From Lingula anatina (Eukaryota > Animalia > Brachiopoda), in the NCBI GenBank assembly GCA_051362555.1, contig CM120643.1, positions 9,486,001 through 9,550,000 of the forward strand: a stretch of DNA of 64,000 nucleotides, read 5' to 3'. Shown here piece after piece: positions 1-64,000 of this stretch (positions are counted from its first letter, which is position 1; every line of letters starts with the position of its first letter). A program made the position numbers and the translations under genes. The notes beneath the pieces were generated by a model. It ran no database searches, was not told the origin of the DNA, and saw nothing but the letters and a program-made list of their open reading frames with translations.

Positions 1-927
1 AAATATTGTCAGACGGCCCTAAGACAGTTTTACATGTACCAGATTGTAAGTATAATAATAATAATAAAAATAAATATAGAATGCAAGGACATATAAAGCA
101 TGCAATCTGGTCCTTATCCCAAATATTTCTAACCACAAATATTTCAACACATAATATAATACAGTGCCATCACCTCACCTGAATAAAAAAAACATTTTAC
201 TGAAATTCTCAGAGAGTCACCCTGAGTATAAGGGGTCATTCCCATTGAAACTATCATTCTGCATAGATCCAACTCCACGGGGACTCTCGCTGAATGCATT
301 CAGATTAACACACCTCCTCCTGGTTTTGAATAGAATACAGAAAAGCTGGTGATGACGTGACTACTTTGGAAACAAGAGGCTTGTACATCTTTTTACCTGA
401 CTGCATTCAGCAAGAGTCCCCGAAGAACAACAGCTGCATTGGGAGAATTACAAAGGGCCCTTAGAGAATTAATGACAATTCCCATTGATGTCACATTTCT
501 GTTACATATGCCCTACCCTATCAATTCTCCGTTCTCAGTGACTCAGGGTGCATCTGCTGAGAATTTTTTCTCTGATAAGCCATACTTATATATTGCTCTT
601 ATATTGCGAGTGAAATAGATATATCACAGGCACAACATAGTTCATTGTCATGGGTGAAAGTTGTAAATCCTGAAAGCCTAGTTTGCAATTTCTTTTCATA
701 TTTAGACCATATATAAAAAAAAAGATCAAAATGAAAACTAAAAATCTTGAAATCAGGCATAATCCTGAAAACTTTCACCCATGCATTATTACTAGTATAT
801 AAATATGGCATATGGAAAAACATCCCCCCCCCCAAAAAAAAAAAAAAAAAAAGTTATGAAAAAAAAAAAGTCAAAATTTTTGCGATTACTTTCTGCCCTT
901 AGCAGAGCTGCAGCAAGTAATACCTAC

Positions 928-1154
928 TTCCTATCAGCATGGTACCAGCGCTTTCTATTCTTGACACTCCACTGGGAAGGCCATTTTTTAGGACAAAAAA
1001 CACAAGTACATCAAAAAAGGAGGAGTGTGGAGCTACGACTAGAAGTGGAGCATCGATGTCAGACGCTGGTATTCCCTTGATGTTAACATAATGGAAGCCC
1101 ATGACAAAAAAGCAAGCTCTTCCCATAAACTCCAGCAACCGGCCACTACAGCGC
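928..1154 (-). CDS. LPCAT2: LPCAT alternative exon 3b (227 nt, phase 2 to 1), catalytic motif PHSSFFD
   Basis: catcattag|G CGC TGT...RCSGRLLEFMGRACFFVMGFHYVNIKGIPASDIDAPLLVVAPHSSFFDVLVFFVLKNGLPSGVSRIESAGTMLIG A|gtaggt. Confidence 0.85.
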
Positions 1155-4100
1155 CTAATGATGAACCAAGCAAATGAATGAAAAACAATGATAACTAAAT
1201 TAAATTCGACATGGATTATGAACATAAAAACACAGAGTAAAGCAAGTATCATGAAGCAGCTTTAAAATATATGGGATTCAGCCAGCTATTTAACCCTACA
1301 AAAAAATAATAAAATCAGTAATATGAATGGCAATACGTACAAGTCAAGAAATCAAAGGACCGATACCACAACAGTTGCATGCATATCATATACAATGTAC
1401 TGGGGTGCGATTCGGAACAGGGTGCTTTAGAATACTTGAAGAGAAAGTGTCACAAGGAAATATGGCCACAGGGTGCAGTACGGTACATATTAGATAATGA
1501 CATATTGATCTCTTCAGAGTGTCTCTTAAAAGACTGAAAATTGCTTTCAAAAGCAACCCAGAATTATCATGGAGATTTTTTCTCACAACTTTTCATGAAG
1601 CATATAGCATTTATAATTTAGTATCTAATAACTCAATGGAAATCCAGTGTCTTCCCACTTCCTACCCATACCCAGTATACACAGAGCATACCTAATATAC
1701 GAGAGAGATTCAAGGGAGTTAAAAGCAAATCACGATCTGATCAATACAAAACCGCTGTGCTACGAAGTGGGGTTATTTTCTTATGGCAGCAAGTCAAGGT
1801 TCGGTAAAAAGCCGGCTTACAAAAACTCTGGCTAAGATGCAATGTGAAGGCCAACAGTTTTGCTAAAATTCCTGCTCCTTACTGACCAATCCCCTTTTAA
1901 TTTTAAAAACCAATATATATATATATATATATATATGTACCCAAACAAAATGTTCGGAATGTCTTGAATATGTGCTAGCAATAAGTGTCATTAGATGCAA
2001 ATTTTTGGTATAATTCTGGATCATTTACGAGAAAGAAGTCTTCCTTCTGTCACCGCCATATATGTCCCATAACCAGGAGAGTGCTGTTATCCTATCAGTG
2101 TTACCCAACAGAATATGTATATATTAATTATATATATTAACATTTATCAAATTAAGTATATGTCTCCCGTTAGTATCACAGTGCCCAGTACAATAACTGT
2201 TACTGTCACGGAAATCACAGATAACTTCTCTGTGAATGTTGTGTGGTAGAGTGAAATTTAATTACTTATTTAATAAATAAACAACTTTTTTTCTGAAATG
2301 TGTTTATGAATGTGAATGTTGGTGGCAAATTGTATGTAAAATTTTTCATTTGTGTCATAGTCACTGTCATTACTTCTGTCAGCTGTAATTTGATATCCTT
2401 ACCTACCTCAAGAACACTCGAGTCTTCATGACAATCAATAATCAATTTCCATTTTTTCTTTTCCTTTGAAATTACTGTTTCACTTTTGCTTTTCAATTAC
2501 CATATTAATGTATTATATACAGTACCTTACCTTACTTTATGACTCTCTGACATATTTCGAGAATGTTCAAAATGAAATGCAAAATAAAAGATTGTCATGA
2601 CTTATATTTTCATCAAGGTGATGGCTAGACTGATTTTTTTTCTTTGTGGCAATCACTGCAATTATACTTTGCAATAAGAGATACATACTACCAAACAGGG
2701 GAATATTTTTTGTGTCTGATTTTGCAACAACTGTTGTCATATCCGTCACAATTGACAATAACACATCGACAAATGACGAGTGTGGAGCAGCGACAAGAAT
2801 AGGGGCCTCCGCAGCTGAAGCACGCTGGCCGCGGAATGGAATCCAATGAAATCCGCCCACAAAGAAGACGCTTCTGTACAGGAAACAGCACAGTTTGTGG
2901 AGAATTCTAAAAAATAAAATGAAAATAAAGAAAATGAGTTAATGAAATTTAAATTTTAAATTCAAAATCCAACATGATAACTCTGTTAGCAATTATATGT
3001 TGGTCAACAAAGTTATATTTTTCTATTGGAAAAGATGTTGCGTTAATTGATCACGTCAAAATTTTGACAAAAAAGATTGGACAAACTCTCATAAAACAAA
3101 CGTACCGCGAGTATAGTTTACACTGTGAGTAATGAGCTAATTATAAGCTATTTGATTAAAGGAAATTCAGAAGTCAGCTCAGCAGTTTTTTCACTAGAGA
3201 TACAAGGCAGCTCTATTCCAGGCTCATGCTCCTTGTTGTTAAATGAAAAAAAAAAGGAAGGAAATGATAAAAACAAATACAACCAGCTGAGCCAGGACCC
3301 CCACTAAGCTCAGCTGGTTTCTCGCAGGTTGTGCTAAAGTTAAATATCATATTATTATTTATGAAATATAGTATTTTTGGTATCTGATTTTAACTTTTTT
3401 TGTGGAATACAGCAGAGGTTGAAAGATCCAAGGCAATGCATAAAAAAAAGAAAAAAATATATATAATCCTGTCAACTGGTTCATATTCAAGATAAAATGA
3501 AGTCAAGATATATAAATCTATACCTTTTTCTTGAAAATTTTCATTACTGACTTTAAGCACTGTATAATGATAATTATCATTAAATATTGTTTGCCAAGGT
3601 ATCACTGTACATTATGATGCCTAATGACAATTGCACTTGCCTTCAAACAAGGAGCTATTACCCTATGTTGCATCAACATTCAATATAGTCTAATTCTCTA
3701 TCAATAGTTCCATTGGTTGACTCACTGTATTTGCTCATAACATACAATTAACATCAAGAATCATAAAGAAAACAGATGTGAACACTGCAGTGACTTCTTA
3801 ACAATTTCCTTCGGAATTAACACAAGATGTAGAGCAACTTTAACACAAAATGCAATTTTTCACCAATTTTACATCTTTTGACTCAGACAGACTGCATATA
3901 TTGCCATTGGGCATTCATTCAAACATGTAAAAGGAAGCAATGCTATGGGAATGAAATAATCATTACAACTGAAAACAAGATGATTTACGAGTTAGACAGA
4001 CACTGGAAACCAGAATGACTCTTGCTTAGATAACCAGAAGGGACTGGAAATATCCTCAACAGATTCCAAACAGTGATCAATTCAATTGTGCAGACCTGTG

Positions 4101-6974
4101 TACAAACACCTCGAACATGTCTTTGGTGTGTTCAGAAACAGTGAAAGACCAAAACGATCATGGGACGTAAGACTGCATTCCCAGAGATTTAGATCGATCC
4201 ATCTGGATCGACCTAACTCCCTGGGGGTTCACGCTAAATTGCTGTCAGCCGAGCACACACCACAGTTAATTACCCCCTTACAGTTTTTAGTAGGCAGGAC
4301 AGACATTTAAGCCTGTAAGGCTGACACCAATCTAGTGAGACTCTCCAGGGAGATAGATCGATCTAAATATCTATGGGAATGGTGTATTAGTGTCCCCTGA
4401 CAACCAATAACTATGTCTGTCTGTCTGCATGAATGGTGCATTGGAGAATTTACACACGTATGACTTAACCATGAAAAACTACTCATGACTCTATGACTAA
4501 CAGACTAAAATGACTCTACCAAAAAGACCTAGAGGGGCCAGAACAATTCTAAAGAGAAAAATTATTTCATATCATAATACATCCATTTTGCTATCTGTGA
4601 AATGTGAAAAAACAGGGGGGTAAGCAATATGACATTTTCTTTTTCTTTTTGTTTCAATTTAGTCAGGCATTCTAAATCTAGAAGTAGATTTCTTTTTAAT
4701 TTGCTGACATTATCTCAACTAGATGTCTTATCTTAAACATCAAAACAATTTTAAACATACCAATCAATAAAAGCATCACAAAGAAATTTACTTATTTTCA
4801 CTTTCAGTAGTAGAAGTAGTAGTATTTATTTATACTAGTACAGTACTTGGCTGAAATGATACGAGCCAAAATTTTATCCTTTAGTTTACAAAATGTATGA
4901 CTATCCTCATCATATATATGATTGAAAATTAACTGTTTCATCTTATACCTAAATATAGCCTGTGTCACAGATTACATTCTTGTATCCCTATAAATGTGTT
5001 ATTAGCTCACACTAAATCTAGTCTTAGACCCCGTTCCCATACAAAAATTGATCTAGCAGGATCGACCCATCTCCGAGGGGTTTCTCGCTAGATTGCTTTC
5101 AGCTGAAGCGGCTCTCATGTCTGGCACACCTACTGAAGCTGTTAGGGGGTAATTAACTATCGCTGAAAGCAATTTAGCGAGAAACCCCTCGGAGATGGAT
5201 CGATCCTGCTAGATAGATCTAGGTATGGGAACTAGGTCTTAGAGCATGAGCAACATATACATGCCATCATAAATCATGGTGATGGTTGTGGAAATCAATA
5301 ATATATACTCGTGTCAAAATGGAATTCTAAAATAGATTTCCATTGGATCTGAAAGGCTTTAGGGGGAATTCTGGAGTCTGTCCGACAAAAGGTAGAAAGG
5401 GGGTGGGGGTAGAAAGAGAGGATCACTTCAGCCTAATGTGATTATCTTCGATAATTTTGTTATGGATCAACTTATTGGATCTGAAAAGCCTTAGGGGTAA
5501 TCCTGGAGTCTGTCTGACAAAAGGTAGAAAGGGGGTGGGGGTAGAAAGAGAGGATCACTTCAGCCTAATGTGATTATCTTCTATAATTTTGTTATGGATC
5601 AACTTACTGGATCTGAAAAGCCTTAGGGGTAATTCTGGAGTCTGTCTGACAAAAGGTAGAAAGGGGGTGGGGGTAGAAAGAGAGGATCACTTCAGCCTAA
5701 TGTGATTATCTTCTATAATTTTGTTATGGATCAACTTACTGGATCTGAAAAGCCTTAGGGGTAATTCTGGAGTCTGTCTGACAAAAGGTAGAAAGAGGGT
5801 GGGGGTAGAAAGAGAGGATCACTTCAGCCTAATGTGATTATCTTCTATAATTTTGCTGTGGATCATCTAAGTGACATAATGGAAACATGAGACACTTCTC
5901 CATAGAAACATGTGACACTTCTCCAGCAGTTTAACCTCCATAATCAATACTTCACCACCATACTAGTACTTCTATAAAGTGTGGCAGCCCTATAATGATA
6001 ATTGCACAGAAATGATGTTGCATCACCATAGCTTGGTTATGTTAGCATATGTCATTCTTTCAAAAGAACTGAACAAAAAAACAGAACATGAAACACATAC
6101 TTAGTAAATTTAGGCATTATCAATAGACTAAAACAGCAAAGCATGTTAAAATTGTGACAAAGATGTCAATGTTACTCTTACATGTTTATAAAATCTACTA
6201 ATCTTGCACTAGAATTGTTTCATCTTCGGTCATTACCTATACCCAGGAGAAAGTGAGTTTATCTTTGCTGGTTTTTATCCAACAGCCTAAAGTTATTAAC
6301 AGATTTTGATAAAATTTTCAGGACATGTTGAGGACAGGTTAGAAAAGTTCTGTCTTAGGATGATAAAAATTTAGTGCTGATCCATTACATAATAAATGAT
6401 CAGTAATCAGACATGAGCCTAGGTTTAAAAAAAAAAAAAAAAAAAAAAAACTGAACATTTATCATGGGACCCAACATCTAACCTTGATGAATCTCAGGAA
6501 CCATCAGAATTGAATTTAAAAATGTGGTATTCCACTTTTCCACGGAAAAAGTTCATGTCTGAGTAATAAAAGGGATTCAGCTACCTTGGCGTAGACCTGT
6601 GCTCCCTGGGGGGCTTTTAGGGTGTATTACCAGAGATTAAGATTGATCCAGAGATTAAGATTTAGATCGACCTAACTCCCTGGGGGTTCATGCTAAATTG
6701 CAGTCAGCCGAGCACGCACCATAGTTAATTACCCCCTTACAGCTTTCAGTAGGCGGGACAGACGCTTAACCCAGCTAAGCTGACAGTAATCTAGTGAGAC
6801 TCCCCACAGGGATAGATCGATCTAAAATCTATGGAAATGGGGTCTTAGACTTATCTCTATACTTACATAACATATCTGACAGATAAGATGAGATATGGCT
6901 TCTTAACAAAGAGCTTCAGATAACTTCATATTGATTCTTAGGGGAATCATTGTGGCTTGATAAATCAAATGTCC

Positions 6975-7006
<32 letters not shown>

Positions 7007-9331
7007 AAACTGAAATCTCACTGTTATTGCCTCTTGTAAAATCTTATATTTTAAACTTAAAATGTATATTAGGAACAGTTTCCTCTACTTGTGTAATATT
7101 AAATGTGACAATGCATGTATTTTATATAAAAGTATCTACTTGTGAAATGGAAACATGTCTAAGCGAGTGTTCTAGTGTCTGTACATCACAGTATTATTGA
7201 TTTTTGTCATCTAAAAAGGAGGAAATGAGAAGAGCTATAGCAGGTATATACAATACCTGCCATTTTCAAAGATGCTACAGAAGATCACATTTCTCACTTT
7301 TCAACATCAATGATACTGGAGTGAGACCACAGTTACATTGTGAATACCTTCTTCAAAAATATGTCTTTAAAAAATAAATAAATGATCCTGAAATGTCAAT
7401 GTAATGGGAACTTATCACAATACTTGAGAATGTATATTATTACCAGTGGTTGCCAACTTTGTGAACAGTTAAAAAGGGTTACAAGTACACGCAAGCAAAC
7501 AGCCACTCACACACACCCACACATACACATTTTGTATATAAGTACTTAACTACATACATCTTAATAAGCAATTATTAAACTAATTCTCAGTGTCGCGAGT
7601 GAAAATAAATAACAAGCTTCTCTCTTCTCTGTTCCAATTATCTCTTTATATGAAAGAGGGGGGGGGCTTTGCCTTTTATCTTCCCATCAATTATTACTGA
7701 CATATCACTATATCCAATAAAAAGGGAAGAAACTCAGTTTGAAAGGTAATCTAGACTATCTGCAGGCATATCCCTCTTGACAAGGTAAGGAAGCCATTTC
7801 AAGTACTAGGCGGGGTAGAGGAAACTGTTCCTAATATTATAATACATCTAGGGATCATGTATCACAAAACATCTTGAAGCAAAGAATTAAAGAAGCTGGA
7901 TTTCTTTATACTGACAAATAAAAAAATTCAGAATCTAATCACTCAATGAAAATGTTACCTTCTCCATCCTCTCACAGGAACTATTTGTTCTTTTTCTTCC
8001 TTAGATCTGAACGCCACAGCAAATGCTGCCACGGGCCAGGCTAACAGTAAGATCACACACAGGCTGACTAGCCGTATAGGGGCTATAGTCACAGACATGA
8101 TGGCCACCTGTAAAATAAAATGTTTAAAAGAAAACTTATAATATATTCTTCTTATCTATAATGCTATGATCAGACATAACACAGGTACATGTAGTAAGAC
8201 GATACAAATACAAGGTAAAATAAAAATTTTTAATTAATATTAAACCCAAAACTATTAATAATGAAAGGCACAACAGTAAATAAAATTAGTCCAAATATTT
8301 CTCATATGGACTAGAGTGACTCATGAGCTCTAGACATTTATGCATATTCCTACAAAAAGATTAAATTACCCGCATGAAAATGCAGTAGTATCGAAGTAGC
8401 AAAGAAGCATTAACGCAGTAGTGGTGTGGAGCATATTTGCAGTAGAAATGCAGTATAGCCTACTGCAATTCTACTTCAAAAATTACATAGGGTTGTACAG
8501 AGGAGGAGCATTAATGCAGTAGATTAGCAGCATGATAGAAGCATGTTTCAAATATGCTAATTAGCTCCCCAATCGAAGCAGGTTTGAAGCATGTTTGCAG
8601 TATGATTGCAGTAGTCTACTGCGCTGGAGTATCTACTTCGTTTTCGCGCGGGTACAGTAATAAACATGTGCAAGCAACATCACATGGTCAGTCGCTATTT
8701 TCAAAATATTTTTAGAATCGGTTGCTTTGATCACAAAAAATAGAATTTGATGCACTAGATTAATCTTAATGCCTGCTAAGGCACCTAATGATTAACTCAT
8801 CTCTAACAATTAGAATTAATTATTTTACCATCTGTCACCAAGGGCTGCAATTGTTGGGTGTCTTTAAGACTGTAATCTCAAAATTTATTGAAGGGAAGAC
8901 ATGCACAAACTATGCATGAAACTAATTTTTTATCTATTTTTTAGTCTTTAGCTATAGTCTGAAAAAATGTAGCATTCAAAGTATAAGCCATATTGCAATA
9001 GTTTCATAATGATTACATAACAATATTAACATTACAATTAATCCCGTTTTACTGCATTTTTTAAAATGAACAAAATTATGACCGCGGTAGTATCACTTCG
9101 CAACTGGAAAACACTCGCTGGACTACAGTAGTGCCAAAAGAAGAATTTGCTGCAAAAGGGTATATTCAGAAGGATTTAATCCGATAAATGTAAAAACTGT
9201 CTTGCACTTTCCAAGTTGCAACAAACCTGTAATTTTTCCCACCATGTCAACTGTAGGTCGTGTACAAAAGGATTTATCACTTCTGGTAGGACAAGAGATT
9301 CAGATCGTGGAAGGACCTTATTGGCCCTCAT
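928..9331 (-). CDS. LPCAT2: Lysophosphatidylcholine acyltransferase (LPCAT1/2-like), 5' part; remaining exons lie off the left edge of the window
   Basis: Exon 1 9331-9227 (MRANKVLPRSESLVLPEVINPFVHDLQLTWWEKLQ, donor GTTTGT). Exon 2 8107-7959 (VAIMSVTIAPIRLVSLCVILLLAWPVAAFAVAF...GWR, TM segment, ends phase 2). Two alternative exon 3 copies at 2906-2689 and 1154-928. The NPFVH, IAPIR..L.AWP and APHSSF.D motifs are typical of LPCAT1/2, and all junctions are GT-AG and phase compatible. LPCAT1 vs LPCAT2 orthology is not resolvable by eye. Confidence 0.9.
2689..2906 (-). CDS. LPCAT2: LPCAT alternative exon 3a (218 nt, phase 2 to 1), catalytic motif PHSSFVD
   Basis: ttttttag|A ATT CTC CAC...ILHKLCCFLYRSVFFVGGFHWIPFRGQRASAAEAPILVAAPHSSFVDVLLSIVTDMTTVVAKSDTKNIPLFG A|gtatgt. 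Confidence 0.88.
4171..4386. mobile_element. Palindromic MITE, PIF/Harbinger-type family (subfamily shared with 6620-6844 and 28841-29055)
   Basis: Inverted arms (ttcccagagatttagatcgatc ... gatcgatctaaatatctatgggaa), preceded by TAA; similar copies elsewhere in the window. Confidence 0.7.
5027..5238. mobile_element. Palindromic MITE with TTA target-site duplication (PIF/Harbinger-type)
   Basis: TTA|GACCCCGTTCCCATAC...GTATGGGAACTAGGTC|TTA with long inverted arms. Same family at 13578-13776, 27691-27942, 53720-53977 and 55957-56138 (partial). Confidence 0.8.
5344..5865. repeat. Tandem repeat, ~132-bp unit x4, in LPCAT intron 2
   Basis: tggatctgaaa recurs at 5344, 5476, 5608 and 5740; units nearly identical. 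Confidence 0.9.
6620..6844. mobile_element. Palindromic MITE (same subfamily as 4171-4386), abutting a short HINE-like element at ~6235-6620
   Basis: Shared core gatcgacctaactccctgggggttcatgctaaattgc...; ends ggggtc|tta. Confidence 0.65.
8369..8652. mobile_element. MITE with TA target-site duplication
   Basis: TA|CCCGCATGAAAATGCAGTAG ... CTACTTCGTTTTCGCGCGGG|TA; imperfect terminal inverted repeats and internal tgcagtag subrepeats. Confidence 0.6.
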
Positions 9332-9811
9332 CTTGTCTCCTCTCTTCGCTGATCAGCGTCTGTACGAGTTAGTTCGTCATCATTAGCACCGTCATGTTCG
9401 TTGCTCCACTTGTCTTTCCATCCTTCTGGCCTCAACGACCTTTACTATTGGAAACTGACCTACTTTATGACTGAACAAAATGATAAATCTACCGCTACCG
9501 GGGAACAGATATACTTTTAAAAGAATTAAGTTAAAATAAATAGTTCTGCTAGTGATAAAAAGAAAACACAAAATAGTAAATTGCAATTTATGTAAGAACT
9601 ATTGATAAATTTTATAAGTTTAGCATTTATTTTACTACAATTTCTTGCCGCCCCCTTAATCACAATCTTTATTTTAGCTCCAAGGTCATTGCGCATGGCA
9701 ACTCAGTGCGACTTTGTAAAGATGCTGGCAGCAGCTACACAAGCAGAAAAATACTTTTATCCTTTGCAAAAAAATTAAGCCCCGTCTTCGTGGGCTTTCA
9801 AACTCGATTCG
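9332..9811. promoter_or_regulatory. Putative bidirectional promoter and 5'UTRs shared by LPCAT and CK1alpha
   Basis: Only 480 bp separate the divergent ATGs at 9331 (minus) and 9812 (plus); transcription starts are not identifiable from sequence. Confidence 0.6.
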
Positions 9812-10813
9812 ATGAAATCGTCAAGGATGGATAGCGGAAGCGACAGGCCCACTAGCAAGTCGGAGTTCATAGTTGGACAAAAGTATCGTTTGATAAGAAA
9901 AATAGGGAGTGGTTCGTTTGGGGACATCTACTTGGGGATAAACATATCAAATGGGGAGGAAGTTGCGGTCAAATTGGAGCCCCTCAAAGCGCGGCATCCT
10001 CAGCTTCTTTACGAAAGCAAGGTCTACAAGATTTTGCAGGGAGGGATAGGTATTCCTCACATTCGTTGGTTCGGGCTGGAGAAAGAATATAACACTTTGG
10101 TCATGGACCTCCTTGGTCCCTCCCTGGAGGATTTGTTTAACTTTGTATCCAGGCGATTCACAATGAAGACGGTGCTAATGTTGGCAGACCAGATGATAGG
10201 ACGCATTGAATATGTCCACAACAAGAATTTTATTCATCGTGACATTAAACCCGATAATTTCCTCATGGGCATTGGCAGGCATTGCAACAAAGTGTTTTTG
10301 ATTGACTTTGGTCTGGCCAAAAAGTACCGCGACTCACACTCTCGCACTCACATCCCATATCGAGAAGACAAAAACTTGACTGGCACAGCACGCTATGCCA
10401 GTATCAATGCTCACATGGGGATTGAGCAAAGTCGTCGCGATGACATGCAGTCCCTTGGATACGTGCTCATGTATTTCAATCGTGGCAGTCTGCCATGGCA
10501 GGGGTTGAAAGCTGCAACGAAAAAGCAAAAATACGAGCGCATCAGTGAGAAAAAGATGTCCACTCCAGTGGAAGTCTTGTGCAAAGGTTTCCCAGCAGAA
10601 TTTGCCATGTACCTCAACTACAGCCGAGGCCTAAGATTTGATGAAAATCCCGATTACATGTACTTACGCCAGCTATTCCGCATCTTGTTTCGCACTTTGA
10701 ATTACCAATATGACTACACTTTTGATTGGACCATGCTGAAGCAGAAAGCTGCTGCTGTTCATGTAGGCAATTCTGGCTCGGCCCGGCCCGTCAACCCGAC
10801 AGGGGGCCATTGA
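9812..10813 (+). CDS. CSNK1A1: Casein kinase I isoform alpha, single-exon CDS (333 aa)
   Basis: [52 protein letters not shown], and the CK1alpha-type C-terminus [16 protein letters not shown]; uninterrupted ORF. Confidence 0.97.
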
Positions 10814-23620: not shown

Positions 23621-24862
23621 TTAATGATCAATGGGTAATACATCTTTATAAACTTCAAAATGATGATTTAAACCTTTCTGAACATGAATCTTGTACTTGG
23701 TTCCCAGAGCTCCAGATTCTGATGCAGTATTATAAAACACTCTACTAATTCTTGAATGAACCAGTGCCATAGAACACATTACACATGGCTCTCTTGTAAC
23801 ATACAAATCATAACCTGTGCATAAATATGGTGCAGTCTTTTCTTTATTTTCTGTGACCTTGTCTTTAGTTTCTGTGTCATTTTTATTGAGTGTAATAACC
23901 TTTTCTTGCCTTTTGGTTATTTCATCTTCAGATGTATAATGAATGTCTGTTTCATTTCTTATGTAATTATCAAGATGCAAAACGGGTTTCTTTTCTTCAT
24001 TTTGACTTCTCTTCTCTTTTGAACTCGTACTAATTATTGTGTCTTCTTCATCTGGTCCAGTCTTTTCCTTGTCTTCAGTTACCTTATTTTTAATCTCCTC
24101 AGTTGTTTTAGTCTCTTTTCCAAGTTTAATAGAAGATATTGCAAACAAGGCAGGGCTGCTGTCATATTTCCAAGCACCCCCACCTTGAGCCTTACCAACC
24201 AAGTCAATGCATACCATTACTGCATGCTGCAAAGGATGCTGGGATCTAATATCATGTGACTTTGCAATAATCTCATTGGTTGATGGATCAACAACAATGG
24301 CACCAACTTTTTCATTCCCCGTCTGCTCTCCCATTTCAGACATTTTCACAGCTTCTTTCATAAACTTTTGGATTAAGTCAACTTCTGAATGTGAAAACAA
24401 TTGGCCACTTAGAATTTTGGCTATTTTCTTGTCTTCATGAAAAGCTGTAGGCCAGTGTAACACTGCCATTTCATACTGTTTTCTTATCAGTGGCTGATAT
24501 TTGGGGACTTGAGTAATGCACGGTTCACCTAAGCTATCCACACTTATGTCTCTTGACTGACAAATTTCGGAAAGAGAGAAAATTTTTCCTCCAGAATCAC
24601 AGTAGTTATCGTCATAACAACAAAGAATAATCTGCAGCTTAGACCCCTCTGGTGTCTTTGCCTTTCTGACCCTTTTCAAATGTTGTAAAGAGGGCAATGG
24701 GAATTCTGATGTCAACTCCCTAATAAGTGTTGTGGTATCTTTTTTGTTTCTTATATCACAAACTAGCACTTTCTCCAACTGAATATCCTCATAATATTTG
24801 TCAGCTAACACAGCCGTTGGGTGCTTAGATGTTTTGCTCTTTCCATCATGGGACCTCTTCAT
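23621..24862 (-). CDS. ADAT3: tRNA-specific adenosine deaminase 3 (non-catalytic subunit of ADAT2/3), single coding exon, 413 aa
   Basis: [28 protein letters not shown] (Val in place of the catalytic Glu), [34 protein letters not shown]. An in-frame TAG lies upstream of the ATG. A probable 5'UTR intron has its acceptor near 24967. Confidence 0.95.
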
Positions 24863-25849
24863 TGTGGAAGGTGAATGGCAGTCTACTGTGCCGGTAGTCT
24901 ACTGTCCACCACACTGGTTATGTTGAGCCCTTAACACTGTACCAGGTGTCCCACCTTCCAAAATACCTGGAATGCAACAAGCCAGGCAAGTTAGTGCAAC
25001 AAATAACCCAAATATTCATAAAAAGCAACTACAATGCAGACCTCTACATTGCACAACTCTGCAGTGTACAAAAGAACCAAAGTAAACTCTCCATGCATTG
25101 CACATTTGTGTAGATCTATTAACTCATAATTAATTTCTTTTTGTTTCAAGCTCAGAAATCATCTTTACTTTGTTATTATTATTATTATTATTATTTTAAA
25201 TAAATATATAAACTATAAACTTTGAAGAATGATAAATCTGAAACCATATGACTGTGTCAAAATGTGTGAAGTGCACACTTTTTAAATGCCCCTCCCCCTT
25301 TATATAACATCCAATGTCCACGATATGAACACCGTTTTCCTCCATCTAACGTACAGCAGATTAGACTCTAGAGGAGCTTTTCTTTCTGCATTTCGTGTTC
25401 AGCCAAATTGGTTATTGATAGTCAACATGTATGTTGTACTCACACTTACACCTAACAACAAAATATAAAGACAGCAACTTCGTCACATGTAGGATGATTA
25501 TGACAGTGTGTTTTCTTGTAAATACTTCTAAGCTCAGTTCACCCACGTTTGTCTGTTTACAGGACAAGCCATCTATCGTTAAAGCAGTCAAGATAATCAC
25601 AAGTTAAACCACAGCGGAGCTGGAATGTTTTGATGATAAAACTGTAAAACTGATCGTATTAGACTTTTCGAAAGATACTCATTTGGTTCGCTAAAATGAT
25701 CTGAGATGTATTTGATTTGTTACTTGTAAGCAAAAGGCATTTTCACACCAAAACCTAGAATGAAGGCTATCTTGATTCAACACCTTCTTTTGTAGATAGG
25801 ACAAACAAACTGCGAAAGAAAATGCATGGTTTCATCCTAACTTCACAAG

Positions 25850-42633: not shown

Positions 42634-44097
42634 TCATACATCATCATCTGTAAAAACATTTCTAAACATTGCAACAGGATATATCTTAGATCTCACTTTT
42701 GGGGCAATGTTATCATTAGACTCCTTTTTCACTATAGCTTCGGTATAAAAATGGTTTTGTTTCATTGTCCCCAGAGTTGATTCCTCATCTTGAAATTCCT
42801 TTTTAATAGACTGAAGTGAAAGCCTAGTCCCAGGTAATATATCCTCATCTTGAAATTCCTTTTTAATAGACTGAAGTGAAAGCCTAGTCCCAGGTGATAA
42901 ATCCTCATCTTGAAATTCCTTTTTAACATACTGAAGTGAAAGCCTAGTCCCAGATGAAATATCCTCATCTTGAAATTCTGTCTTGATAGACTGATCTGAA
43001 AAACTAGAATGAATCCTTTTTTCATTATGTAAACAATTACTTTTATCACTGAAACTCTTTTTACAAAGCTGGCCTTCTGTGTGGATCCATCCGTGTCGTA
43101 AACACGCTCTTTTCTCACTAAAACTCTTTTCACAATATTTGCATTTGAGTGGTTCTTCTCCAGTGTGGGTCCTTTCATGTTGTTTACAGTGTTTATTGCC
43201 AATGAAACTCTTTTCACAATACTGGCATTTGAATGGTCTTTCTCCTGTGTGTCTTCTTTCGTGTACTATACAATTACTTCTTACAATAAAACACTTTTCA
43301 CAATATTTGCATTTGAATGGTTTTTCTCCAGTGTGGGTGCTTTCATGTTGTATACATTTACTTTTCTGAATAAAACACTTTCCACAAAATTGGCATTTAA
43401 ACGGCTTTTCTCCAGCGTGAATCTTTTCATGTTGTTTACAGTAACTTTTCTCACTAAACCTCTTTATACAATACTGGCATTTGAATGGTTTTTCTCCAGT
43501 GTGGGTCTTTTCATGTTGAATACACTTGTCTTTGACAATAAAAGTCATTTCACAATACTGGCATTTGAATGGTTTTTCTCCAGTGTGAGTCCTTTCATGT
43601 TCTTCACGCTTGTATTTGACAATAAAACTCATTTCACAATACTGGCATTTAAATGGTTTTTCTCCAGTGTGTCTCCTTTCATGTCGTTCACAGTAACTTT
43701 TCTCACTAAAACTCTTTACACAATACTGGCATTTGAATGGTTTTACTCCAGTGTGGGTCTTTTCATGGTGAACACACTTGTCTTTGACAGTAAAAGTCTT
43801 TTCACAATACTGACATTTGAATGGTTTTTCTCCAGAGTGGGTCCTTTCGTGTCGTATGCAACTACTTTTCACATTAAAACACTTCTTACAAAACTGGCAT
43901 TTGAATGATTTTTCTCCAGTGTGGATCAATTCATGTCTTATACATTTACTTTTCTGTTTAAAACACTTTACGCAATACTGGCATTTGAATGGTTTTTCTC
44001 CAGTGTGGGTCCTTTCATGTATTATACAGTTACATTTCTTTTTAAAACTCTTTTCACAATACTGGCACTTGAAAGGGTTTTTTCCACTGTGGGCCAT
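42634..44097 (-). CDS. Tandem C2H2 zinc-finger protein (12 intact fingers plus 1 degenerate) with a C-terminal 20-aa repeat
   Basis: FKCQYCEK.F..K..C..HERTHTGEKP repeated with 84-bp periodicity. First in-frame ATG is at 44097 (the ORF track start at 44133 is GTG); an upstream exon cannot be excluded. Confidence 0.85.
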   Translation of the reverse strand: MAHSGKNPFKCQYCEKSFKKKCNCIIHERTHTGEKPFKCQYCVKCFKQKSKCIRHELIHTGEKSFKCQFCKKCFNVKSSCIRHERTHSGEKPFKCQYCEKTFTVKDKCVHHEKTHTGVKPFKCQYCVKSFSEKSYCERHERRHTGEKPFKCQYCEMSFIVKYKREEHERTHTGEKPFKCQYCEMTFIVKDKCIQHEKTHTGEKPFKCQYCIKRFSEKSYCKQHEKIHAGEKPFKCQFCGKCFIQKSKCIQHESTHTGEKPFKCKYCEKCFIVRSNCIVHERRHTGERPFKCQYCEKSFIGNKHCKQHERTHTGEEPLKCKYCEKSFSEKRACLRHGWIHTEGQLCKKSFSDKSNCLHNEKRIHSSFSDQSIKTEFQDEDISSGTRLSLQYVKKEFQDEDLSPGTRLSLQSIKKEFQDEDILPGTRLSLQSIKKEFQDEESTLGTMKQNHFYTEAIVKKESNDNIAPKVRSKIYPVAMFRNVFTDDDV

Positions 44098-44133
44098 TTT
44101 GTACCATACACATATACTTGAAACTTCTTTCAC

Positions 44134-44425
44134 ATTACTGCCACTTGAATTTTTGTTCTCCAGTATAGGTCAGAATTACATAATGTTTTTCGTCAGGTGG
44201 GTCTTTTACTGTGGTAAATAGTAATTTATCTTATTAAATCACTTTTCACAACGTCAGCATTTGATGGATTATTTCCAGTGTGAGTCATTTCACGCTGGGT
44301 GCAACTGTGTAAACGCTTTTCAAACACGGCAATATTTTGAAAGAATTTTTTTACAACATTGAAACACTGATGGTTTCTCTTCAGTCTGAGTGTCCTCTGA
44401 TGTATAATGTAGTTTGCACGTTTAA
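44134..44425 (-). pseudogene. Decayed zinc-finger repeats upstream of the intact array
   Basis: Minus strand shows linker/finger remnants (ACTCACACTGGA = THTG; AAATGCTGACGTTGTGAAAAGTGATTT = KC*RCEK*F) with stops and frameshifts. Confidence 0.6.
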
Positions 44426-59452: not shown

Positions 59453-59696
59453 TGTGCCACATTTGGGCAGAAAAGTTGCGAATTTTTCTGCTGAGGAGTT
59501 TTTCAGCCACGGAGCTGAACTCCGCACTCAGGCACGCTACCCTACCATTTTAATGTTTATTGTTGTATAAATTGTATATGAGGAAACCCCAGCACGGACT
59601 GGTGAGTGTTTTTAGAGTGTTTTTACAGTAGTTTCTTACAAGTTTTAAGGAGTTTTCTGGAATTTTCGGCGGCACGTGCGCCAAGGAAAAAACAAA

Positions 59697-61802
59697 ATGG
59701 CGACGCACGCCAGGATTTTCATAAATTATGCAAATGTAAATGAGTTAATGCGGACTCCAGGTCTCACGGAAGACCAAGTGTTCAAAATAGCCGAATTGAG
59801 GGAACAGTTTGGAAATTTAAATGTGCAGCAAGTGGAAAGTGCTTTGTGCTGCAGACTGGCTCCTCGTACGCTGGATATGGTGGACTTTGAGCCGAATCAG
59901 CGCTTGGGTGTGGGCAGCACGGCTGTTTCACTCAGGGAAAGGAAGGTGCAGGAGACAGGAGGATCTGGAAACTGGCTATGGAGATTTTTCCGGTTTCTTT
60001 TAGGACTGTTCTTCGGATTTTCTGCTCAGGAGGAGAGCAACGCTTTCAATAGCGAAAGTGCGCCTCACGGAGGTGGCACGCGGCAGCTAGGAGGCTGTGA
60101 GGGTCAAATGAGTGCACGTCGTAACTCGGAGGCCACGGTGCCGAAGAGATTATTCGAGGATAGTGGACTGGAGGGAGCGAATTCGCCTCAACTTGTCAAA
60201 CGGAGCCCAGGTAAAAATGTAGTTAAGAATGTAAATAGTGGGGTTCAGCAGGGGGGTCCTTATGTTCCATATACACCTAGCCCCATGGGGGGTGGGGTAG
60301 CATTAGGTCCCGGGAGTCAGGATAGGGCTGTTTACACCCCTGAATTGTTTACACCTAGTCCAGGGGGGGGCGTTGTAAGGGAGACTCCTATGTCCGGGGA
60401 TGTCCGGGGGGAGGGGTATGCTATTGGCCCGGGGGGTGGTGGCAGCTATTCGGGTTACCCTGGGAATCATAGCCCTCCAATGGCACCTGGTGTCAGTTCC
60501 CCAGTCATGCACCCTGGGAATCACGGATTCTCAGTACCGCACCCTGGAAATCACAGTTCTCCAACCATGTACCCTGGGAATCACGGATTCTCAGTACAAC
60601 ACCCTGGAAATCACAGCTCTCCAGCCGTGCACCCTGGGAATCACGGATTCTCAGTACTGCACCCTGGAAATCACAGCTCTCCAGCCATGTACCCTGGGAA
60701 TCACGGATTCTCAGTACAACACCCTGGAAGTCACAGCTCTCCAGACGTACACCCTGGGGATCACGGATCTCCAGTGGTGGGAAGTGGATCGAATTCAGGG
60801 CACTTAGTGTATCATAGCACCCCAGTGGAGGGAGGTAGCCAGGACGAACACCCTGTATTCCAGGGCTCTCCTATATTGAAACGGGGCGCGGCCTCGAGGA
60901 GGACTGCACGGCTCACGGAGCTAGGGGCAGAACAAGACTCAATAGAGAGGAGGAAGGTCAATCCTCCTAAGAGCTTAACTTTTAACGGACACGGAAGTTG
61001 GGCTGCTTTTAAGTTGCTTTTCTTACGACAGGCAGAGAGGGAGGATTGGGATCGCGACATGTCCCTGGATGCACTATGCCTCTGCCTGAAGGGTAAAGTC
61101 CTAGACTGTTGTGTGAACGTCACACGCAGGCTAGGTAAGCTCTCATATGAAGGTCTCATGGAGGAATTGGAGACCTGTTACGGAGAAACGGACACACCGG
61201 CTACGGTCCGGTCGCAGCTACATAACGCTACTCAAGGCGAGACAGAAACGGTGGATGAATGGGGAGTCAGGGTGCTACGTCTGACTTCTGAAGCGTATGC
61301 TCAGCTACCTAGGACATTCGTGGAGTCAGAGGCTGTAAGTCGGTTCTGCGCGGGCATGATTGATTCAGAGGCAGGTCAATCAATTTATATGCGACAGCCA
61401 GCCACCTTAAGGGAAGCGATGCAGCTGGCTAAGATGCATAGGGAAATGCGTGTGACTATGGAGAATGCGGGAAAGAAATTGCGCCCGGGAGCCAAGCGAG
61501 CCAACCAAGTGACGCCTGCAGCAGAGGGTAACATTCCAGAGCTGGAACAGATGAGGGACACCATCAAGGAAATGGAGAAGGCGTTGAAAGATGTCCGCCA
61601 GGAGCTGAGTAGGAGGTCATCTACCGGTTACGGCCACGGAGCCGCACCCGGAAACCAGCGGGGCTGGGGACGGGGCAGCACTGGAAGCTCGGTGCTGTGT
61701 TATAAATGCAATCGGCAAGGGCACATTGCAAGGGAGTGCCCGCAGGTGGGAAACTCCACCGGGTCGAGGCCGGAGGCCAACCCTCGACCCAGCGATTCAT
61801 AG
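59697..61802 (+). CDS. gag: Gag (701 aa from ATG 59697): HhH-like N-terminus, hydrophobic helix, decapeptide repeats, capsid-like domain, coiled coil, CCHC knuckle
   Basis: aaaATGG context. Capsid-like LTFNGHGSWAAFK...W...L...LKG...QGETETVDEWGVRV...RFCAGM...PATLREAM, and CYKCNRQGHIAREC. Confidence 0.9.
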   Translation: MATHARIFINYANVNELMRTPGLTEDQVFKIAELREQFGNLNVQQVESALCCRLAPRTLDMVDFEPNQRLGVGSTAVSLRERKVQETGGSGNWLWRFFRFLLGLFFGFSAQEESNAFNSESAPHGGGTRQLGGCEGQMSARRNSEATVPKRLFEDSGLEGANSPQLVKRSPGKNVVKNVNSGVQQGGPYVPYTPSPMGGGVALGPGSQDRAVYTPELFTPSPGGGVVRETPMSGDVRGEGYAIGPGGGGSYSGYPGNHSPPMAPGVSSPVMHPGNHGFSVPHPGNHSSPTMYPGNHGFSVQHPGNHSSPAVHPGNHGFSVLHPGNHSSPAMYPGNHGFSVQHPGSHSSPDVHPGDHGSPVVGSGSNSGHLVYHSTPVEGGSQDEHPVFQGSPILKRGAASRRTARLTELGAEQDSIERRKVNPPKSLTFNGHGSWAAFKLLFLRQAEREDWDRDMSLDALCLCLKGKVLDCCVNVTRRLGKLSYEGLMEELETCYGETDTPATVRSQLHNATQGETETVDEWGVRVLRLTSEAYAQLPRTFVESEAVSRFCAGMIDSEAGQSIYMRQPATLREAMQLAKMHREMRVTMENAGKKLRPGAKRANQVTPAAEGNIPELEQMRDTIKEMEKALKDVRQELSRRSSTGYGHGAAPGNQRGWGRGSTGSSVLCYKCNRQGHIARECPQVGNSTGSRPEANPRPSDS
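60510..60779 (+). repeat. Coding minisatellite: nine 30-bp units in an alternating 60-bp dimer, (H/Y)PGNH(GFSV/SSP.).
   Basis: accctgg(g/a)aatcac(gg/ag) recurs every 30 bp. Confidence 0.95.
61748..61790 (+). other. Programmed -1 ribosomal frameshift signal: G GGA AAC, 6-nt spacer, 9-bp GC-rich hairpin
   Basis: Heptamer 61748-61754 is in the gag frame; GGGTCGAGG (61761-61769) pairs with CCTCGACCC (61782-61790); the -1 frame is the pol frame. Confidence 0.88.
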
Positions 61803-64000
61803 GCCCAGATGTTATAAATAAGCCCATTAAGAAACTCAGGGTACCAGAGGAGTCAGCAGTTTCGGATATTAAGTGCACTGTACCCACGGAGGTACAGGGT
61901 GTGCAATCAGAATTTACTCGACAGGGTGCAGCACTAGTCCAAGACAAGCCCAACCGTGATACGAGTCACGTTGAATCACCAACTAGGGCAGATGAGGCTA
62001 CCACAGGGGGAATACAGGGCACGGTTCCTGCTCCCATGGTAGTGGTGCGACAAATCGGAACAGTGGCGGATTATTCACTTCAGATGAAAGTGGGAAACAT
62101 TGCTGTGAATGCTGTAGTGGACACTGCGGCTCAAGTTACGATACTTTCAGACCGCATTTACAACAGTCTTAAGAAACAACCTAAGAGGTTGAATTCAGTA
62201 CAGCTTTTAGCCGCTGGTCGGGAAATGGTGATGCAGGGGTTCACGGCAGGCCCTGTTAAGTTAAAGATTGGACATAAGTGGTATGCTGTGAGGCTATACG
62301 TAGCCCCCATTGAACAGGATATGTTGCTGGGAATGGACATTATGAAGGACTTAGGACAGGCAGTAGTGGATGTCGGCAGAGGAGTGATGCAGTTTGACGG
62401 CATGTATCTGACATTAGACGCTAATTCAGATAAGGGAACACCTCAGATGGCCAGGGTCACTGTCGCACGGCGCCAGGTGATACCCCCTTACTCCGCTGCC
62501 AGGGTGGCCTGTAAGTTAGATGTAGATCTTCCTAGTTATGTAATAGAGCCAAAGGTGGGGGGTGTTGGTAAGTTCCTTGCTCCCAGGGTTATTCGTAATG
62601 GGGGGTCTGAACCCATCATGGTCCTCATAAATCCCAGTGAGAGGCACAGACTACTGCGTAAGGGTACTGAAGTGGGGCGGGCTTTTACCTATGCGGGTAT
62701 TATAACGTCTGGGGAGCCCCTGGGGGATCCGTTATGTTTCCCTAGTAACCAAGGGGAGGGTGGCAGGTCACCTGGGGCGGAGGTCATTCACTGCATACCA
62801 CCAGCAGTGCAGTCAGTCACGGCACGGACCGATGACGAGGTCAATGACGAGGCGCGACGCGTGCCTTCTCATTTAAAGCAGGTGTATGAGGGATCCAGTG
62901 CAGAATTAGATGATCAGCAGAAAGTTCACCTAGCGAGATTACTCACGGAGTATCAGGATGTGTTTGCTAGAGACGAATTTGATTTAGGAAACTTCACATT
63001 GGTTGAGCATAAGATAGACACTGGTACTGCTCTTCCGATAAAGCAGAGAATGCGGCGAACGCCACGGTGCTTTGTGGGCGAGGAGGAAGCCCATTTACAG
63101 AAGATGTTGAAGGCAGGAGTGATTCAGGAGTCAACTTCCGACTGGGCGTCGGCGCCAGTGTTAATACGGAAGAAAGATGGCTCTGTGAGGTGGTGTATCG
63201 ATTACCGTGCGTTGAATGCCGTGACCACTAAGGACGTGTTCCCATTACCCTTAGTCGATGACTGTTTGGATACCTTGTCGGGTAATGTGTATTTTTCTAA
63301 GTTGGACGCCAACTCTGCGTATTGGCAGGTGCCCATACGTGAAGAGGATCGGAAAAAGACAGCTTTCATTACGAAATATGGTCTCTATGAGCATGTGCGT
63401 ATGGCATTTGGTCTGTGCGGGGCGCCCGCGACCTATGCTCGGATAATGAACTTAGTTTTCCGTGGAATGTCCTGGAAAACTGTGCTGGCATTTCTAGATG
63501 ACATAGTGGTACTCGGTACTACTTTTGATGTGCATTTACAGAACCTAAGGGACGCCCTTGAGAGGTTCCGCAGCTACGAGCTGAAGCTTAAGCCAAAGAA
63601 ATGCACCTTCTTTAAGAAGGAGATTGAATTTCTCGGACGGATAGTGACAGGGGAGACGCTCTCCATGTCTGATCATGACATTAAGGCTGTCACGGAATGG
63701 CCTACACCAACATGTGCCAAAGATGTGGAGAAATTCATGGGCTTGGCTAATTACCATCGAGCCTTTATTAAAAACTTCAGTGAGATAGCGGCACCCCTGT
63801 ACGCTGTAACTGGAAAGAGTTACGAGTGGGGTGAGGAACAAGCACGGGCTTTTACGGCATTAAAGGGGGCATTAACATCTCCCCCAGTTCTTTCTGTTCC
63901 CACGGTGGACGGAGAGTTCATTTTAGATACAGACGCAAGTGACTTTGCTATAGGAGCAGAGCTTATTCAAGTACAAGATGGCCAGGAGAAAGTGATAGCT
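61748..64000 (+). CDS. pol: Pol polyprotein (partial): aspartic protease, reverse transcriptase, start of RNase H
   Basis: One frame (-1 relative to gag) carries AVVDTAAQVT (GAC 62120), SDWASAPVLIRKKDGSVRWCIDYRALN, MAFGLCGAPATY, AFLDDIVV (63491) and FILDTDAS (63926); no stop seen before the window edge. Confidence 0.93.

Follow-up and report, generated by a model that had tools for sequence, protein, structure and literature searches.

In a 64,000-nucleotide (nt) stretch of the genome of the brachiopod Lingula anatina (contig CM120643.1, positions 9,486,001 to 9,550,000; hereafter the window, to which all coordinates refer), a single gene for a lysophosphatidylcholine acyltransferase (LPCAT) carries two versions of its third exon, denoted 3a and 3b. 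These form a real, expressed and ancient mutually exclusive pair over the catalytic motif, and both forms are present in annotations already. Either exon is spliced between exon 2 and exon 4. Judging from sequence, it is likely that one gene yields in this way two full-length LPCATs from old copies of the exon for motif 1, which keep the catalytic His and Asp and differ in their preference for acyl-coenzyme A (acyl-CoA) and lyso-lipid substrates.

The gene runs along the minus strand. Exon 1 (coding part 9227..9331; start codon ATG, 35 codons) was located by its match to the RefSeq isoforms and by reads joining exons 1 and 2. It is followed by the constant exon 2 (7959..8107; 149 nt), which encodes the first membrane helix and ends in phase 2, by exon 3a (2689..2906; 218 nt), the minor form of LPCAT1-like type, and, across an intron of 1534 nt (1155..2688), by exon 3b (928..1154; 227 nt), the major form of LPCAT2/4-like and ancestral-like type. 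Positions 1..927 hold the start of the intron preceding the shared exon 4, which lies past the left end of the window; exons 4 onward are known via read ends and RefSeq proteins. A first-pass annotation made from the letters alone had described 3a and 3b as exons of equal phase that both splice in frame to exon 2 and both encode APHSSFxD. This is borne out by the coordinates, by AG/GT ends on exons 2, 3a and 3b, and by open frames of 157 codons for exons 1+2+3a and 160 codons for exons 1+2+3b; the shared APHSSFxD contains motif 1, HxxxxD. The two exons are otherwise as divergent as had been stated, with 41% protein identity over 71 residues (E 3e-16) and 114 of 228 aligned bases identical. Both lengths are 2 mod 3, and the expected break of frame upon joint use takes the form of a stop at codon 196, 111 nt upstream of the 3b end. 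Such a premature stop is a target for nonsense-mediated decay, by which double inclusion would be removed. In a tblastn search of the 64-kb window with both exons and the full isoforms, exon 3 gave two matches and exons 1 and 2 a single one each; neither exon 1 nor exon 2 was detected in the intron between 3a and 3b, in agreement with the earlier reading. The pair is thus homologous, adjacent and of the same phase, as tandem duplicated exons are. Intron 2 additionally contains three copies of a palindromic repeat that resembles miniature inverted-repeat transposable elements (4170-4370, 5022-5243 and 6620-6850) and is abundant among RNA reads stemming from other loci, as well as four tandem copies of a 132-nt unit (5344-5871).

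The product of 3b matches the Lingula anatina LPCAT2-like isoform X1 (P0008; 100%, identical over 160 residues), and that of 3a matches isoform X2 (P0005; 97%). These two RefSeq proteins differ only over residues about 86-160, that is over exon 3; both isoforms had therefore already been annotated.

To follow the use of the two exons, seven of nine same-species RNA runs were aligned (runs X2 and X5 were left out); joints were listed from at least 3 reads, and sequencing depth was low. Two mappings were used, one to a wider stretch (4 runs; 15 of 74 joints seen) and one to a narrower LPCAT stretch (4 runs). The wider mapping gave the exon 1-2 joint in all four runs (23, 7, 11 and 13 reads) and likewise the exon 2-3b joint (14, 7, 8 and 7 reads); the exon 2-3a joint was not among the 15 of 74 joints seen. 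In the narrower mapping, loose read ends linked 3b in all four runs to exon 2 (7, 9, 11 and 9 reads) and to exon 4 (7, 9, 40 and 11 reads), and linked 3a to the same two exons by 3 reads each in one run of the four, X8. Joining of exon 2 to 3b was present in all seven runs aligned. Both junctions that the first-pass annotation had singled out, 7959>1154 and 7959>2906, hence occur in reads, the latter by the 3 reads of run X8. Onward from each exon the reads reach the same exon 4: for 3a and for 3b alike, translation of the downstream loose ends gives the residues found after exon 3 in the two RefSeq isoforms. Neither of the outcomes named beforehand as fatal to the proposal was encountered, since both exons have reads and 3b, rather than belonging to a separate paralogue, shares exon 2 and exon 4 with 3a.

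Coverage of 3a was seen in four of the seven runs (X3, X7, X8 and X9), corresponding to 3/3 runs of study P3, 1/2 of P1 and 0/2 of P2; the P3 animals are genetically different. A few reads of run X9 continue unspliced from 3a into the intron between 3a and 3b. From the pattern of junctions and coverage, we therefore assign 3b as the major form and 3a as the minor one; 3b would be the default, and 3a possibly regulated. Within positions 880-3000, no joint between 3a and 3b was listed in any of the four runs (threshold 3 reads, low depth), and therefore none attained 3 reads. Mutual exclusion of the two exons is supported by these data, the RNA being thin for 3a, and by the RefSeq pair X1 and X2. 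The pyrimidine tract is stronger at 3a than at 3b, which hints at active repression of 3a because this exon is the minor form despite its stronger tract. Two candidate mechanisms of exclusion were rejected: RNA pairing through an inverted repeat shared by 3a and the intron separating it from 3b was not beyond chance (5 of 40 shuffles were as strong), and steric exclusion by a distant branch point is unsupported, the AG-free zone before 3b being only 38 nt.

Both RefSeq proteins match the acyltransferase domain PF01553 (P0005, 69.2 bits; P0008, 55.4 bits; cut-off 23) and contain EF hands. Motif 1, PF01553, motifs 2-4 and the C-terminal EF hands place them in the LPCAT1/2/4 subfamily of the AGPAT-family lysophospholipid acyltransferases (LPLATs). 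Within the swapped exon lie the second membrane helix, motif 1 with the helix and strand that come after it, and a P-x-x-G kink. The first-pass annotation had named motif 1 and the following motif 2 as the catalytic and acceptor-binding core; AGPAT motif 2 (residues 172-177 of human LPCAT1 according to the text of PMC8753187) falls in the shared exon 4. In the structural models, exon 2 provides helix 43-66 and exon 3 helix 84-101 of a two-helix membrane anchor. Both isoform models have the same secondary structure, with model confidence values (pLDDT) of about 88-96 over exon 3; the 3a model resembles PlsC (5KYM; E 1e-5, template modelling score 0.64 by target), and the 3b model has the same elements. 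What the models show is that both isoforms can fold, not that they are active. PDB searches returned no solved structure of LPCAT1 or LPCAT2.

The paired exon was sought in other invertebrates, as the first-pass annotation had proposed, and was found in protein records from molluscs, an annelid, a nemertean, a beetle, hemichordates and starfish. Record pairs swapping exon 3 come from the molluscs Ruditapes, Mya, Dreissena, Saccostrea, Crassostrea virginica, Mizuhopecten, Gigantopelta, Haliotis, Biomphalaria and Pomacea, from Ptychodera and Saccoglossus, and from Octopus sinensis, Owenia, Lineus, Aethina, Acanthaster and Asterias amurensis (second record truncated); the Crassostrea and Pomacea pairs show additional differences near the C-terminus. 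The Mytilus pair combines two species, and a fused Mytilus coruscus model (P0033) holds both exons with 3a first. A fused Blattella model (P0202) also has 3a before 3b, as in Lingula. Among the protein records examined from amphioxus, sea urchins, Centruroides, Anastrepha, Oculina and vertebrates, only one exon type occurs. The acorn worm Ptychodera has three exon versions, and in the Acanthaster X2 version the motif context is ACH (proteins P0063, P0065 and P0079). Records from Anopheles and a relative (P0045, P0173 and P0211) and from Babylonia (P0117 and P0053) may represent independent paralogue splits of the exon types: in a fused Anopheles model, a 3b-like acyltransferase domain is followed in tandem by a 3a-like one, both complete and both typed by eye, and the gene records of Babylonia comprise one of 3a type and one that is weakly of 3b type.

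Analysis of 16 protostome pairs, with the 3a and 3b labels of the other species set by resemblance, supports the great age that had been claimed for the switch. Profiles built without the phylum under test assigned 30 of the 32 protostome exons as expected; one was a tie (Aethina X1) and one was assigned wrongly (the Octopus 3b-type exon). Independent duplication in each phylum was rejected by the approximately unbiased test (p-AU 0.0014; 52-row exon tree, ambulacrarian exons left out). This applies to the joint per-phylum hypothesis only; sisterhood of Lingula 3a and 3b alone was not rejected (p-AU 0.093). Because separate duplication in each phylum is rejected, the exon duplication is likely to be older than the split of these protostome phyla. 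The protostome phyla split more than 500 million years ago. Cnidarian and ichthyosporean outgroups score 3b-like on the profiles, and 3a is therefore likely the derived copy. The profile scale gives no clean separation of the alternative exons of ambulacrarians, most being near zero or 3b-like; six of them fall inside the 3a group of a larger tree (84/76, unstarred), from which 10 long-branch or outgroup rows were left out. Conservation in at least 28 of the 32 exons is shown by eleven columns, those of His127 and Asp132 among them.

The two exon types differ at positions that have been linked to substrates in mouse LPCAT2, whose numbering we transferred by the offset from the catalytic His (21 of 24 named residues match in platypus LPCAT2). 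In Lingula 3a the residues concerned are Tyr95 (2878-2876) and Lys147 (2722-2720), with the catalytic His127 at 2782-2780; in 3b they are Gly96 (1123-1121) and Arg150 (961-959), with His128 at 1027-1025 (all minus strand). According to the text of bioRxiv 10.1101/2020.10.31.363515, mouse Ala115 forms the bottom of a modelled acyl pocket, A115L lowers the preference for 16:0-CoA and A115W that for 20:4-CoA, and a designed loop swap between LPCAT1 and LPCAT2 abolished activity; in the text of PMC8753187, Arg166 of LPCAT2 is proposed to recognise the phosphate of lyso-PAF, the lyso form of platelet-activating factor. Gly occupies the Ala115 column of 13/16 3b-type exons but of 0/16 3a-type exons, where Lingula has Tyr, Owenia and Lineus have Trp, the molluscs Ser or Cys and the beetle Ile; among vertebrates the column is Met in 5/5 LPCAT1 and Gly in 5/6 LPCAT2 sequences. 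At the Arg166 column (His + 20), Lys occupies all 16 3a-type exons and 5/5 LPCAT1, and the 3b-type exons have Arg (10/16), Lys (5/16) or Ala (1/16), with Arg in 10/10 LPCAT2/4. It is because these two columns differ by exon type that a change of substrate preference is suggested. With Gly and Arg at the two sites, 3b is predicted to leave a roomy, LPCAT2-like acyl pocket; the Tyr and Lys of Lingula 3a would narrow the pocket and disfavour long polyunsaturated chains of the arachidonoyl type, like LPCAT1 with its Met and Lys.

Several observations weigh against a functional switch of this kind. Junction support for 3a, at 3 reads per side from one run, stands exactly at the listing threshold; runs X1, X4 and X6 have no coverage of 3a, and that of X9 is partly unspliced. 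Read variants in 3b are synonymous in 5 of 11 cases, which is not significant (p 0.10-0.18), and the 3a and 3b labels outside Lingula rest on resemblance. In a wider set, the Ala115 column is Gly in only 63 of 128 3b-type exons (4 of 71 3a-type). Mollusc 3a-type exons have the small residues Ser or Cys at this site and Pomacea 3b has Leu, and a rule of bulky versus small is therefore not uniform. Moreover, the direction of the preference shift in the mouse mutants depends on the residue, and the pocket is a homology model (text of bioRxiv 10.1101/2020.10.31.363515). The main rival to a change of substrates is a change of membrane attachment: the switch would be real and ancient but alter attachment to membranes or lipid droplets, stability, or calcium or regulatory coupling. 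Exon 3 covers the second helix of the two-helix anchor, many type-diagnostic columns fall in helix 84-101 and the following turn, and fly and mammalian LPCATs are located on lipid droplets (text of PMC4293825); the sharpest type differences nevertheless include both substrate-linked positions of mouse LPCAT2, and we regard this explanation as unlikely.

The low and patchy expression of 3a (junction reads in 1/4 runs, no coverage in 3/7) would also fit leaky splicing, in Lingula, of a duplicate under decay or close to neutrality. This is very unlikely: 3a has an open frame and the catalytic residues, its read variants are synonymous in 5 of 7 cases (p 0.012-0.027) with no indels listed, and across phyla 3a-type exons are more alike (mean identity 51%) than 3b-type exons (39%). 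An origin of 3a and 3b from separate paralogous or allelic genes, or from an assembly artefact, could draw on P0152, a further Lingula record of 3a type from a different scaffold (6 residue differences from P0005), which is probably an allelic copy and which short reads do not distinguish from the first. We hold such an origin to be extremely improbable, as the same exon 2 and exon 4 sequences are joined to both 3a and 3b, the RefSeq X1 and X2 records have an equal longest contig (293,909 nt), and the identical swap recurs in many other species.

The substrate switch may also bear on the vertebrate enzymes. Outside exon 3, vertebrate LPCAT1, LPCAT2 and LPCAT4 form one clade (support 95/96; 395 columns; 47 of 86 aligned rows, one isoform per species), and the single invertebrate gene is therefore co-orthologous to all three; a faster constant-region tree of 236 columns left LPCAT4 unplaced. 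Within exon 3, profile scores are 3a-like for 5/5 LPCAT1 (+9 to +16 bits), 3b-like for 6/6 LPCAT2 (-10 to -23) and weakly 3b-like for 4/4 LPCAT4 (-0.5 to -9 bits), and in 99.9% of column bootstraps the 3a-likeness of LPCAT1 exceeds that of LPCAT2. Under a mixture model, the 16 protostome 3a exons and the 5 LPCAT1 sequences form a starred group (97/89; the bootstrap had yet to settle completely), and grouping of the vertebrate exons as one clade is rejected (p-AU 0.027; 52 rows). The difference between human LPCAT1, associated with saturated phosphatidylcholine of the surfactant type, and LPCAT2/4 may have begun as a splice choice in the bilaterian ancestor, affecting the floor of the acyl pocket and the contact with the lyso-lipid phosphate, with vertebrate duplication fixing 3a in LPCAT1 and 3b in LPCAT2/4. 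We rate the chances of this as about even or slightly better because the vertebrate exon question rests on 72-73 columns only and no two-exon chordate was found: among the protein records no chordate with both exons came to light, the amphioxus records examined being all 3b-type, and 150 representatives included no 3a-type exon that could be traced to a tunicate or another named chordate.

For this vertebrate link alone, the 3a-likeness of LPCAT1 could instead be convergence and the 3b-likeness of LPCAT2 a retained ancestral state, with no switch split between paralogues. The 3b-like outgroups and amphioxus records would fit this account, as would the poor sorting of the ambulacrarian exons, the weak 3b-likeness of LPCAT4 and plain identity, by which Lingula 3a is 37.5% identical to LPCAT1 and 41% to LPCAT2; under LG+G4, furthermore, a vertebrate exon clade is not rejected (p-AU 0.256 in the larger tree, 0.105 with 52 rows). 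Set against it are the mixture-model results, the column bootstraps and the union of the vertebrate genes outside exon 3, and we consider convergence a real possibility, if somewhat doubtful.

Elsewhere in the window, one 243-nt exon of an SLC7-like amino acid permease gene is present as four tandem copies, all open and with AG/GT ends (58258-58016, 57027-56785, 56391-56149 and 54230-53988; minus strand), copies 2-4 being 52-62% identical to the first; later exons at ∼49190-48816 and ∼47451-47071 were listed once each. The array is a candidate second mutually exclusive cluster. As 243 nt is a multiple of three, the frame does not enforce exclusion here. The last two copies stem from a recent duplication that includes the flanks (88% DNA identity), with conserved motifs altered. 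An uninterrupted kinase-domain frame (Pfam) on the plus strand at 9779-10813 (344 codons stop to stop), which we take to be casein kinase 1-like, faces LPCAT in head-to-head orientation, some 0.5 kb away from the LPCAT ATG, and may reflect a shared promoter or a retrocopy. The minus strand further contains an uninterrupted frame with a cytidine deaminase domain (Pfam) at 23621-24898, presumably an ADAT3-like deaminase, and a C2H2 zinc-finger array at 42634-44169. Gag and pol frames resembling a long terminal repeat retrotransposon (zinc knuckle, protease, reverse transcriptase) occupy 59649-64000 (plus); they are GC-rich and run off the window.

The invertebrate isoforms are natural protein pairs, identical save for one exon of 72-75 residues and kept across several phyla, with which the basis of preference for acyl chains and head groups can be tested directly. 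If the difference between LPCAT1 and LPCAT2/4 did begin as a splice choice, the pairs are natural single-exon chimeras that isolate the specificity determinant. They also point to tuning of membrane lipid remodelling by splicing in invertebrates, in place of the separate genes used by vertebrates. LPCAT1 and LPCAT2 are disease-relevant, through surfactant and cancer and through PAF and pain, respectively (text of PMC8753187). The literature searched, mostly main texts or abstracts of open papers, yielded no published description of mutually exclusive LPCAT exons.

The Lingula pair resembles the tandem duplicated mutually exclusive exons of PKM, OGDH and CACNA1, described in the main texts of PMC8373072, PMC9741552 and PMC7954323, in that adjacent homologous exons are present and one is used, and in being ancient, with core residues kept and others varied. 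That the event covers a catalytic motif is rare, the PMC7954323 set as given in its text holding 9 catalytic-site events. The main texts of these three papers contain no mention of LPCAT or acyltransferase; the swap is on record only in invertebrates, and human-anchored catalogues would therefore miss the LPCAT pair. From the invertebrates we infer a probable two-exon LPCAT ancestor, with probable splice isoform separation in vertebrates, akin to the cases in the texts of PMC4494069 and PMC9741552 (CACNA1F/CACNA1S and the FYN family in the latter), where duplicates each keep one exon version. In those cases, however, some vertebrate gene keeps both exons, whereas none of the vertebrate LPCAT records examined does. 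The Lingula enzyme, known from its sequence, shares AGPAT motifs, a two-helix anchor, EF hands and a PlsC-like fold with mammalian LPCAT1 (LPLAT8), LPCAT2 (LPLAT9) and LPCAT4 (LPLAT10) and with fly CG32699; unlike the mammalian LPCATs, which are encoded by separate genes, it combines one gene with a choice of exon.
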